NCBI RefSeq assembly: GCF_003991155.1
Contig: NZ_CP031297.1
Source: Escherichia coli
Lineage (GTDB): Bacteria; Pseudomonadota; Gammaproteobacteria; Enterobacterales; Enterobacteriaceae
Reading direction: 5' to 3' (one strand)
Length of the DNA: 64,000 nt
Shown: one piece after another, positions 45,401-48,400 of the stretch
How the letters are laid out: each line of letters starts with the position of its first letter
Position numbering within the stretch: position 1 is the stretch's first letter
Made by a program: the position numbers

Positions 45401-48400
45401 CGAAGGTCCGGGGATCCCCCCAGATTTTCTGCCGCATATTTTTACACCATTCATGCAAGCCCCTGATAGTAAACGCAATGGCAGTGGTTTGGGGTTAGCT
45501 GTCGTCTCAGCGATTGCCAAAGCGCATGGAGGTTATGCAACCTGCACATTATCAGCTGATGGCGGCACAATTATCTCCTTGTGCTGGCCTGAGCCAGAAC
45601 ATATCGAATGATGTGGTCTATCAATCAACCCAAGACTAAGTTGCGCACGATGAGCTGGTTGCGTCCGCTATTTTTTGCTTGATAAAGTGCAGAATCGGCA
45701 GATTGAATAAATTTTTCAACAAATGCACTTACCTGAATTTCACGGCTGACGGACTCTGAAACAAGCTCAGTCACGCCTAAACTCACCGTCCATTTAACAG
45801 GTTGGCCATCGTCACTTAAAATTGTTGTCTCTTCTACACTACGCCTTATTCTTTCTGCCAGTTTTTCAGCCTCACTAGATTTTGTCTCAGGCATCACAAT
45901 TGCGAACTCTTCACCACCGAGTCTGGCAACTAAATCATTTTTACGGGAGCTGTGAACGCACAAATCCGATAATTGCCGGATGACTCTATCACCAGTGGGA
46001 TGGCCGTACGTGTCATTGATCCGCTTGAAATGATCGATATCCAGCATAATCAACGAACAACTCCGTTTAAAACTCACACTGTTCAACACCTCAAGCTTGA
46101 TAAACTTGTCAAAAAATCTGCGATTAGCCGCACCTGTAAGCGGATCAGTTCTGGTTGATTTCTCAAGTGCGTTTTCTAGGATATGGCGATGATAATAACT
46201 CCATGAAAAAATGCCCATTACAAACACGGTTGCCAAACAAGACTGAAGAGATAACTGAATATACGCATCATCAGGAACATCGCCAACAATACCACCACTG
46301 CCCAGATAAAATGGGATCAGGAGTATCAAAGCTAATGAAGCAATCTGAAGGTAAAGCGAGAGGCCAAGCAAGATAAACAGTACAAAAAAAGGTGTTGTCA
46401 CGATAGAGCTGATGATTGTCAGAAAGCTTATCTCGTCCATTCCCAAGATGAATGCCGATTGTAAACTGCAAATAGCAAGCGTCAGCAATATGATGAAAAC
46501 TGAAACAAGATAATTATTGGTCTTCCAGAGCGCATATGCTGGTATTGCTAGCCAAAAGTAGAATGCATAATATCCAAAATGTATTTTTGATTTCTGGTCC
46601 GAGACTCCCCATTCAATCAGGTAATCGGCAAGCCCGAGAGGTATCAGTCCAATAAAAATGAGGGCGGTGTAAGATCTGTGATCATCCATCTTCTTTTGAA
46701 GATAGGAGCTGTTCATTTCCAATCGCAGAACATCGAGGATGTAACTCACAAAAGTTGACGCATCTTTTGGACTCATTTTGCTCCATCTACAGTTAAATTC
46801 TGTCTATCAAGATAACGAAGTATAATGCTGTTCTGAGGTGATTGTGGGCATAAACTGATTTTAAGGTGTCATGCCAAATGCGACGAAGACGTTAGCTCAA
46901 ATCTGGTTGTGTCATCCTTAACTAATTATCACTCATTAATTACACTTTATGTACCATTCGATTGCGATACCAGCTTCCAGCCTTGACATGAGTAGAATCA
47001 TCACTTTCAGAAAGTACCATTTTTTTGCATCGTGGGTTTGAGGCTAAAGTATGGATCGTCGCAATACACCAAAAGCTAACCCAAACTAAGTTAATAGTCG
47101 CTTGGTATTGTTTGATGATTCCTTCCATGCATAATAGCAGTGCGGTGCTAAATATGTGTCTACGCCTATGCCCAACCTTTTATCTATACGCTCATACAGC
47201 ACTAAGTCGACCAATCACTCACATGGTTATTACCAATTAGTTCTACCATTACGTGGCGGAATTGTAATTGAGGTAGGCCAATTCAGCGGGAAAGTTGTTG
47301 CAGGTGAATGCGTTGTCGTTAGAAAACACGAAGCGCATCTTTTTAATGCTCATCCTGATGCTCTGTTTGTTGTCGCGGATATGGACAAACTTCCAGAAAA
47401 TATTGAGCTTGATGGAAGTAGTGTTTTCGCAATTTCAAAATCCTTGTCTTGTTATCTGACTTTTGTAGAGGAGCAATTACAACACCAACTCAATAGTGAC
47501 CTTGAATATGCGATGTTCAGTACTTTTTACCTTTTGCTCGCTGAACAAGAGCTACTGCCGAGACTGGATAATCGAATTGCCAAAGCTGTGCATCACATTC
47601 AACAGAACATACAAGAGACTTTAACTGTAAATCAGCTTGCTAAAATTGCATGTTTAAGCAGTACTCAGTTTAAACTTCTGTTCAAGAAGCAGCTTGGTTT
47701 TACTGTTCATGATTATGTTACCAAATTACGTATGGAGAAAGCACAGGCGCTCCTTAGACATACAGATTTCTCCGTTCAGCAAGTTGGTGAGATGGTGGGT
47801 TACCCAGAAAGCTCGACATTTAGTCGCAAATTCTCCCAGTATTACGGACTCTCGCCGCTGTTATCAAAAAAATAACTTGCGTCTATATCTCTAACAAATG
47901 CGTCCTTTTTGTCAATTTTTCCCAGACGGATATCTATACCATTATCTGAATTGATAGTCAGTCTATGCAGGTGATGAAGATGTTTATGACAACGCGTGCA
48001 AACGGAATGCTAGCAATTGTTATTGCGAGTTTTTTGTGGGGAACAACTGGCACTGCTGCTAGCTTTGCGCCTGATATCAGTTCTTTTGCTATTGGTGCAT
48101 TTTCTATGGGATTTGGCGGTATTTTACTGTGTGTTAATGCTAGAGAGAGATTAGCTCAAGACTTATCCCGTATTCGAAAAACTCCTTTGAGCCTCATGCT
48201 AGGAAGCTTGTGTGTCGTACTTTATCCTTTGGCATTTTATACCTCTATGCGTTGGTCCGGTGTTGCTATTGGTACTGTCGTTTCGATTGCGAGTGCGCCT
48301 CTATTTGCCGCAATCATCGAACGTCTTTTTTGTAAAAAGACGTTCTCTTTGAAATGGCTATTGAGCTTTGTATTTGGTGCAAGTGGAATTGTATTGCTAA

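Follow-up and report, generated by a model that had tools for sequence, protein, structure and literature searches.

The analysed window, a 64,000-nucleotide stretch of Escherichia coli contig NZ_CP031297.1, contains a 15,073-bp accessory insertion at positions 36386..51458, delimited by alignment to the empty-site IncC plasmid NZ_CP020056 and previously described as an "efflux pump region" (PMC8907287) and as the "15.1-kb inserted region uvrD" (PMC11350614). It is bordered by two 6-bp copies of the target duplication CTCTAC, the left one at 36380..36385 (empty-site alignment; PMC8907287) and the right one at 51459..51464 (empty-site alignment), and it interrupts a backbone gene for a UvrD-like helicase just upstream of traF. 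According to the alignment, the 5' part of this gene occupies 35000..36385 on the plus strand, and the final 147 nt of what is, when unsplit, a 503-aa reading frame are found beyond the insertion, at 51465-51611. About 260 bp upstream of traF are left untouched. The insertion has a GC content of 45.2%, against approximately 50% for the IncC backbone, and carries eleven genes on a segment related to Shewanella DNA.

On the minus strand, an efflux operon (36695..43687) encodes an MFS transporter (36695-37966), an outer-membrane factor (37972-39375), an RND permease (39375-42521) and a membrane-fusion protein (42527-43687). It is followed on the plus strand by the genes of an OmpR-family response regulator (43816..44553, published as baeR) and of a sensor histidine kinase with a HAMP-HisKA-HATPase organization (44550..45611, published as baeS), whose best NCBIfam matches are AdeR and AdeS, respectively, both under cut-off. 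A diguanylate cyclase gene (45625..46776, minus strand) adjoins this two-component system, as the initial annotation had stated, with the RND efflux operon beyond; it is convergent with the histidine kinase gene, 13 bp apart, and the two therefore cannot be co-transcribed. The other cargo genes, on the plus strand within 47156..51230, encode an AraC-family regulator, an EamA transporter, a LuxR-type regulator and a second TyrRS (tyrS). NCBIfam scores place the two-component system closer to AdeRS than to BaeSR, AdeR, AdeS, AdeK and AdeC being among the best hits at the plasmid locus, all of them under their equivalog cut-offs. The AdeRS-AdeABC locus of Acinetobacter likewise associates a two-component system with a divergent tripartite RND operon; Ade loci are not known to have a linked diguanylate cyclase.

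The left end of the insertion (36386..36510, plus strand) has a TG terminus and four direct repeats of about 23 bp ending in (T)TACCAC(C). The right end (51380..51458, minus strand) has a CA terminus (TGTAAAACGG when read inwards) and three repeats of about 23 bp, in the same register as those of the left end, the general pattern of the repeats being RTTGCA-N8-10-TTACCACC. Copies of the left end, about 93% identical, are present in roughly 88 other plasmids. A search for the transposon family of these ends gave no match in phages, and the genes flanking a related site were limited to a RecD2-like helicase, with no transposase. The context of the ends in Citrobacter is a mosaic and was uninformative. 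The same 15-kb element, with the same ends, was retrieved in another context (L012), with two IS elements nearby.

The cyclase had initially been attributed to the mobile backbone, an attribution that has to be abandoned: the gene lies inside the insertion, and the cyclase region is present in about 24 records, as compared with about 1,100 plasmids harbouring the flanks alone. That it could be a general IncC backbone gene was rejected on the clean empty site of NZ_CP020056 and on the absence of the insertion from most IncC plasmids. The cyclase is cargo, and the insertion at this site occurred in one lineage of type-1 IncC blaNDM-1 plasmids. Twenty-two of the 24 records are at least 99% identical over a 2.5-kb query around the cyclase gene, and a megablast search of 5,426 complete E. 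coli genomes in "near" mode, which covers only identities of roughly 85% or more, gave no similar DNA. In a lineage of plasmids from Bangladeshi K. pneumoniae, ISSpu20 took away the 5' end of the cyclase gene, with no obvious loss of the plasmid. The window differs from p5_SCLZS62 by 1 nt in 30.5 kb across the region, and the published region of this plasmid has the same gene order, the same CTCTAC repeats and the same relationship to Shewanella baltica CW2 (PMC8907287). The cyclase gene is already known from a GenBank annotation and from a drawing in a 2022 paper; it was named "dgcT" in p5_SCLZS62's efflux pump region, in name only and with no cyclase assay (PMC8907287), and our literature search found no published biochemical or phenotypic test of it.

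The gene encodes a 383-aa protein with an ATG start, identical to WP_048822807.1 and supported by ORF calling, Pfam, the annotation of NZ_CP082173 and the literature; a Shine-Dalgarno sequence, GGAG (46781..46784, minus strand), can be read 4 nt 5' of the start codon. The proposal that it is a membrane-bound GGDEF cyclase with a multi-helix sensor is confirmed by matches above cut-offs to Pfam MASE8 (PF20968, E=3.3e-08, 34.3 bits for a cut-off of 26.2, aa 74-205) and GGDEF (E=2.6e-42, 144.8 bits for a cut-off of 23.8, aa 210-374), as well as by the six transmembrane helices of an AlphaFold2 model (mean pLDDT 86.6). The N-terminal membrane sensor region (aa 1-209, 46150..46776, minus strand), defined with the model, hydropathy and Pfam MASE8, starts with an amphipathic helix (aa 3-19), followed by the six helices of the MASE8 domain, which are joined by 3-8-residue loops; the final helix continues straight into the GGDEF domain (aa 210-374, 45655..46149, minus strand), whose limits agree between Pfam, TIGR00254 (162.6 bits for a cut-off of 37.4), WspR alignment and Foldseek. 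PF20968 is present in the precomputed Pfam listing of every close relative. The product is an inner-membrane one-component signalling protein in which a canonical GGDEF domain follows a MASE8 domain nearly devoid of extramembrane loops. The name "dgcT", which refers to E. coli DgcT/YcdT, was rejected. The sensor of E. coli DgcT is a MASE4 domain, the sole membrane-domain match of the plasmid cyclase is MASE8, and the label is thus unjustified; no DgcT model appeared among its 22 NCBIfam hits, in which all the equivalog matches are far under their cut-offs.

The GGEEF active site announced as intact was located at aa 287-291 (45904..45918, minus strand), its position being checked in the sequence, and is preceded at five residues by an RxxD I-site, RKND (aa 278-281, 45934..45945, minus strand), in the order R278-K-N-D281, LVARL, GGEEF. 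In an alignment of 39 family members (A1), the whole GGEEF motif is invariant; D246, N254, D263, E289, E290, K368 and R372, together with R278 and D281 of the I-site, are invariant. The cyclase catalytic residues line up with WspR, and D246, N254, D263, K368 and R372 correspond to the metal, guanine and phosphate ligands D327, N335, D344, K442 and R446 of PleD. The degeneracy of the active site that a careful alignment might have uncovered was looked for at the catalytic positions and the I-site, all of which are kept. The protein is thus predicted, from its sequence, to synthesise c-di-GMP from GTP. GGDEF proteins are often degenerate and membrane ones can work through protein contacts, so that a receptor or scaffold function was considered, as was a Hypr-type GGDEF producing cGAMP; with every catalytic position canonical and invariant, such a function appears very improbable. 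Hypr enzymes have a serine in place of the aspartate at the PleD D344 position, which is here an invariant Asp263.

Foldseek searches with the model matched WspR and PleD, which are active cyclases, DosC and the full-length 6TM-GGDEF protein ImcA (8WCN). WspR and PleD (PDB 3BRE and 1W25) share the A-site, the I-site and the fold of the catalytic domain, with 36-42% identity, but they are soluble and activated by a phosphorylated receiver, whereas the plasmid cyclase lacks a receiver domain and is equipped with a membrane sensor. ImcA of P. aeruginosa, which also combines six transmembrane helices with a GGEEF-bearing GGDEF domain, is the sole solved full-length structure to match the model over its entire length, at 23% identity, a TM-score of 0.43 and an rmsd of about 10 Å. 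It is a homodimer whose transmembrane domain is required for activity (PMC10904736) and its iron-responsive control is exerted by a partner, IsmP, for which the plasmid locus has no evident counterpart.

Comparison of gene neighbourhoods revealed a module made of the cyclase, the histidine kinase and response regulator, and the MFP-RND-OMP-MFS genes, of which the cyclase forms a conserved part: synteny across these seven genes is kept in copies with a cyclase of only 49-53% identity. Relatives of the cyclase with 38-53% identity are likewise found beside RND pumps; for those with 38-47% identity the neighbouring RND pumps are unrelated, the contexts being an SXT/R391 ICE, where the pair adjoins traF, Pseudoalteromonas, Shewanella algae and Duganella. 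Two of these, Duganella and the ICE, have the cyclase gene on the strand of the pump genes and immediately downstream of them. The RND linkage, assessed on a sample of only twelve contexts, is missing in three more distant MASE8-GGDEF members. A scan of genome contigs with the A1 motifs for the origin and neighbourhood of the gene returned only unrelated GGDEF proteins and was uninformative, because these motifs (ARLGGEEF and similar) are generic to GGDEF domains.

With respect to an S. baltica-type copy, identity falls along the module from 99.7% in the RND permease to 48.5% in the cyclase. The dS values are 0.17-0.23 in the OMP-RND-MFP genes and saturated in those of the response regulator, the kinase and the cyclase, a pattern which rules out rapid evolution of the cyclase as the only cause of this gradient and indicates that the module is a recombinant mosaic. 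Where all the genes are equally old, the cyclase is nonetheless the fastest-evolving one (in L007, dN of 0.44 vs 0.07-0.28). Between two variants of the 15-kb element, the dN/dS of the cyclase is 0.10 at a dS of 0.18; the protein is thus kept by purifying selection.

Upstream of the cyclase, a promoter and terminator scan of 380 bp revealed no sigma-70-like promoter, nothing exceeding the shuffled expectation, and this region differs between module lineages. A search for a response-regulator operator present both in the pump/two-component intergenic region and upstream of the cyclase gave only a weak 10-mer, which was discounted because it is confined to one element lineage. Cloning of the pump with its two-component system did not change MICs in E. 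coli DH5alpha (PMC8907287); in Enterobacterales, the module may thus be silent. These observations raise the possibility that a competent cyclase is unexpressed or unactivated in these hosts and hitch-hikes with blaNDM-1, an explanation which we hold as a serious though minority one and which partly overlaps the one preferred below. It would accommodate the absence of a promoter consensus, the lack of phenotype of the pump clones, the IS truncation in one lineage and the two IS elements close to the element in L012; output may in addition be limited by I-site feedback, and the near-identity of most records makes their recent spread uninformative on selection. Against it, the open reading frame is intact with a good Shine-Dalgarno sequence, the dN/dS between element variants is about 0.1, although the marine donor may have been where this selection operated, and related cyclases from ICEs show activity upon expression in V. 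cholerae (PMC10672970).

These ICE-borne proteins, DgcK and DgcL of SXT/R391, are among the closest known parallels, being likewise cyclases carried as cargo by conjugative elements, with a transfer machinery akin to that of IncC plasmids; changes in biofilm and motility are reported upon their overexpression (PMC10672970). The initial annotation's suggestion of an effect of the plasmid cyclase on host c-di-GMP, biofilm, motility or conjugation is plausible only by analogy with them. The hotspot-3 ICE homologue found here, P0019, which may correspond to DgcK or DgcL, has the same MASE8 and GGDEF architecture over 382 aa and is 45% identical to the plasmid cyclase overall (34% in the sensor half and 58% in the GGDEF half). 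It is located beside traF-traH in a variable region and adjoins an RND pump of a TetR-associated type, only 22% identical to the plasmid pump. The traF-adjacent ICE site is known as hotspot 3 (PMC2791158). The presence of relatives at this equivalent site, together with the preservation of the sequence upstream of traF, could suggest that the cyclase was co-opted to adjust IncC conjugation, for instance through an aggregation or biofilm favouring mating, hence its place by the traFHG operon. We regard this as improbable: the dgcL gene of SXT is outside the SetCD transfer regulon (PMC4344509), the insertion is missing from about 98% of the plasmids sharing these flanks, which are typed as conjugative, and a tolerated insertion hotspot accounts more simply for the site (PMC4542580). 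Nothing found ties the cyclase to the control of IncC transfer.

The explanation we prefer as a whole, with a probability of about 70%, is that of a cargo membrane cyclase making c-di-GMP and belonging to the conserved pump module. In this estimate were weighed, on the opposite side, the absence of a detected promoter, the unconserved upstream region and the lack of an operator shared with the pump, the convergence with the kinase gene, the unchanged MICs of the cloned pump and the ISSpu20 truncation, as well as the three distant members without RND linkage and the sample of twelve contexts. As known for PleD and WspR biochemistry and for ImcA, a homodimer would make c-di-GMP by condensing two GTP, with its activity set by the membrane domain according to an intramembrane or envelope cue, and product inhibition at the RxxD I-site would limit output. 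More tentatively, the cyclase may act with the pump, the same membrane or xenobiotic stress leading to a c-di-GMP-driven sessile response in the recipient host.

Plasmid- and ICE-borne cyclases are well documented, and the finding as initially stated changes little. The present analysis adds the recurrent linkage of cyclase and RND genes across pump types and mobile elements, which offers a handle on the connection between efflux and c-di-GMP, as well as the purifying selection on the cyclase and the mosaic nature of the module. The blaNDM-1 IncC plasmids that carry it occur in Klebsiella, Enterobacter, Providencia, Proteus, Salmonella, E. coli and Vibrio, and the cyclase, if active, could give carbapenem-resistant strains a biofilm or persistence trait. 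A bolder and rather doubtful extension is that a MASE8-GGDEF protein and an RND pump form one functional unit travelling together on several mobile elements, which would include the IncC insertion, hotspot 3 of SXT/R391 and an island with a Tn3 transposase and an integrase in Shewanella. The membrane domain, devoid of loops, would then sense the lipophilic substrates of the pump or the resulting membrane damage, and the recipient would gain efflux and a c-di-GMP biofilm switch tied to the same cue, which could account for the absent MIC phenotype of a pump cloned without its cyclase. The linkage suggests that the tmexAB-toprM pump, considered as "non-functional", deserves to be re-examined jointly with its cyclase.

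The initial annotation had placed a membrane-bound GGDEF protein at 45625-46776, and the open reading frame proved genuine. Located on the minus strand, it encodes 383 aa from an ATG start, with a Shine-Dalgarno GGAG 4 nt 5' of this codon, and exceeds the curated cut-offs of both Pfam GGDEF (aa 210-374, E=2.6e-42) and Pfam MASE8 (aa 74-205, E=3.3e-08), as well as that of NCBIfam TIGR00254 (162.6 bits, cut-off 37.4). Scores against the named NCBIfam equivalogs (PleD, SiaD, DgcN, DgcQ, AdrA and others) fall far under the cut-off of each, so the protein is not an orthologue of any of these named enzymes. 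The sensor of E. coli DgcT is a MASE4 domain; the present cyclase has MASE8 instead, and its published name dgcT is thus an artefact of annotation. Already known and annotated, the cyclase belongs to a familiar enzyme class and is unexceptional within it.

An alignment of 39 family members, 31-96% identical to the cyclase, revealed invariant D246, N254, D263, R278, D281, G287-G-E-E-F291, K368 and R372, which correspond to PleD D327, N335, D344, the R359xxD362 I-site, G368GEEF, K442 and R446. HMMER alignment to WspR gave the same matches. The GGEEF active site described earlier as intact thus withstood careful alignment, its A-site and ligand residues showing no degeneracy in any member. A reading as a Hypr (cGAMP) enzyme is ruled out by Asp263, and, with the I-site intact, product inhibition is expected. 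An AlphaFold2 model derived from this alignment (mean pLDDT 86.6) has an amphipathic helix at the N-terminus and then six transmembrane helices, which are connected by 3-8-residue loops; helix six (169-209) runs unbroken into the GGDEF domain. Together with MASE8, the model bears out the proposed multi-helix sensor upstream of GGDEF. It contains no periplasmic domain, which implies that any signal would have to be perceived inside the membrane or at its surface. Foldseek matched the catalytic half to WspR, PleD and DosC, and the whole chain to P. aeruginosa ImcA (8WCN), a dimeric 6TM-GGDEF cyclase whose activity requires the transmembrane domain (PMC10904736).

The window is a type-1 IncC conjugative plasmid with blaNDM-1, near-identical to p5_SCLZS62 (1 nt difference in 30.5 kb over 31000-61500). 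The cyclase had been assigned to the mobile backbone, a location that must be corrected: alignment with the empty-site IncC plasmid NZ_CP020056 places it inside a 15,073-bp insertion (36386-51458), and PLSDB holds the cyclase region in 24 records versus about 1,100 with the flanks alone. The insertion interrupts a 503-aa UvrD-like helicase gene 147 nt short of its stop codon, is bordered on both sides by the 6-bp duplication CTCTAC, and is lower in GC (45.2%) than the backbone (about 50%). Megablast against 5,426 complete E. coli genomes found no similar DNA. The 15-kb region and its cyclase gene are already published: one paper reported the CTCTAC repeats, matched the efflux pump region at 88.87% to the chromosome of Shewanella baltica CW2, found no mobile element for it and left the transposition mechanism open (PMC8907287), and a second described the same "15.1-kb inserted region" with "function not clear" (PMC11350614). 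Elsewhere in the window, 1-21000 is a resistance island (ISCR1 copies, groES, cutA, trpF, ble, blaNDM-1, two sul1, qnrA1, chrA, mer operon, IS5075/IS4321), where p5_SCLZS62 is published as carrying Tn6358b; here, unlike elsewhere, the window departs from p5_SCLZS62, with 3,970 mismatched positions in 31 kb that presumably reflect an indel shift. A large RHS-repeat protein gene (rhs1, a type-1 IncC marker) at 22690-26943 is followed by small ORFs without assigned function.

The seven-gene block formed by the cyclase, the two-component system (HK-RR) and the MFP-RND-OMP-MFS pump keeps its order and orientation in two diverged lineages, in which the cyclase is 53% (L007) and 49% (L008-L011, including the S. 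baltica CW2 chromosome) identical to that of the window; the pump module therefore includes the cyclase as a conserved component. In the CW2 lineage the block adjoins KfrA, an integrase and a Tn3-family transposase. The whole element, with exactly the same ends and 88-98% identity, also occurs in another context in a Klebsiella contig (L012), with two additional IS elements, which identifies it as a discrete mobile unit. Between the window and L012 the cyclase has a dS of 0.18 and a dN/dS of 0.10, indicating purifying selection. The module is a mosaic: relative to the S. baltica-type copy, protein identity is 99.7% for RND, 95.9% for OMP, 94.3% for MFP and 87.5% for MFS, but 76.5% for RR, 69.8% for HK and 48.5% for the cyclase, whose sensor half reaches 40% and catalytic half 58%. 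OMP, RND and MFP have a synonymous divergence of 0.17-0.23, and RR, HK and cyclase are saturated, pointing to recent recombinational exchange of the pump core and to old signalling alleles. In the L007 comparison all genes are saturated, and the cyclase has the highest dN (0.44 versus 0.07-0.28). The two-component system (43816-45611), published as baeSR, is closer to AdeRS (RR: AdeR 283 bits versus BaeR 167; HK: AdeS 289 versus BaeS 173; all under cut-off), in an AdeRS-AdeABC-like locus layout. Beside the Shewanella-type copy L009 lies a gene (20599-21191) for an EptA-like phosphoethanolamine transferase (PF08019 and PF00884), the family of the mcr colistin-resistance genes.

Of broader interest is one thing only: this cyclase subfamily is repeatedly paired with RND efflux systems, and the pairing is mobile. 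P0019, the relative with the widest distribution (45% identity), is carried by an SXT/R391-type ICE directly adjoining traF-traH, where TetR-MFP-RND-SMR genes and then the cyclase lie on one strand in the variable region by traF (L003-L006, 2483-9149); ICE cyclases are known from hotspot 3, s073-traF (PMC2791158). Between the ICE and IncC-borne RND permeases, identity is just 22%. The IncC insertion lies immediately upstream of traF, a place equivalent to the ICE variable region, and this shared placement argues that related conjugative elements acquired pump-plus-cyclase cargo independently at the same backbone position. Chromosomal relatives, too, neighbour pumps: MFP-RND-TetR then cyclase is the order in Pseudoalteromonas, Shewanella algae and a marine assembly, and TetR-MFP-RND-DUF535 then cyclase, after a 33-bp gap, in Duganella; distant relatives (<=37% identity: Pseudomonas, Pseudorhodoferax, Desulfuromonas) have no RND gene nearby. 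The linkage, present in 9 of 12 contexts of a small, non-random sample and amounting to three or four independent arrangements, suggests functional coupling, as a lead rather than a result.

The comparisons establish how the cyclase is built, that its catalytic and inhibitory sites are intact, that it is under purifying selection, and that its location is accessory and its synteny conserved; that it raises c-di-GMP is plausible by analogy. The enzyme would make c-di-GMP as a homodimer, switched by a cue within the membrane and held in check by the I-site; it could affect biofilm and motility as do DgcK/DgcL of SXT/R391 ICEs (PMC10672970), and may co-operate with the pump. A role in IncC transfer control finds no support, and SXT dgcL lies outside the SetCD regulon (PMC4344509). 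Several results count against importance in clinical hosts: a promoter scan 5' of the cyclase detected none, no operator common to the pump promoter and the cyclase upstream region was found, cloned baeSR-tmexAB-toprM gave no MIC rise in E. coli DH5alpha (PMC8907287), and ISSpu20 truncates the cyclase gene at its 5' end in IncFIB/IncHI1B plasmids of K. pneumoniae from Bangladesh. ISSpu20 is a Shewanella IS5-family element; the interrupted copies (L100: NZ_CP095577 and sister plasmids, Dhaka, K. pneumoniae/K. quasipneumoniae, blaNDM-1) have a CDS annotated as 1065 nt versus 1152 nt in full.

The insertion termini are TG...CA (36386-36510 and 51380-51458; also L012, L102-L104), and each end carries three or four direct repeats of about 23 bp finishing (T)TACCAC(C), in registers that match between the ends (about 22, 45 and 68 nt inwards of the tip). 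These repeats and the 6-bp duplication resemble transposons with multiple transposase-binding sites (Tn7, Mu, Tn552 style); the 15-kb insertion contains no transposase gene. The left end recurs at about 93% identity in roughly 88 other plasmids without efflux genes (Salmonella IncC, Citrobacter, Acinetobacter), with a conserved 337-bp segment 5' of it and differing cargo 3', either two small ORFs or an msrA/msrB cluster with another diguanylate cyclase; related sites lie at 8664-9123 in both L102 and L103 and at 20268-20728 in L012. The arrangement suggests a common docking site whose cargo can be swapped. Copies in IncC plasmids and Klebsiella finish with right-end-like sequence that abuts a RecD2-like helicase gene at its 3' end. 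Decayed inner copies of the left and right ends (46945-47049 and 49021-49061, 75-76% identical) flank an AraC-EamA pair, so the segment looks nested or composite: pump, two-component system and cyclase, then AraC-EamA, then LuxR-tyrS. The last part (49086-51230) carries the gene of a LuxR-type regulator and, after it, a second, plasmid-borne gene for tyrosyl-tRNA synthetase (TIGR00234, 382 bits); the additional enzyme may confer resistance to, or self-protection against, a TyrRS inhibitor.
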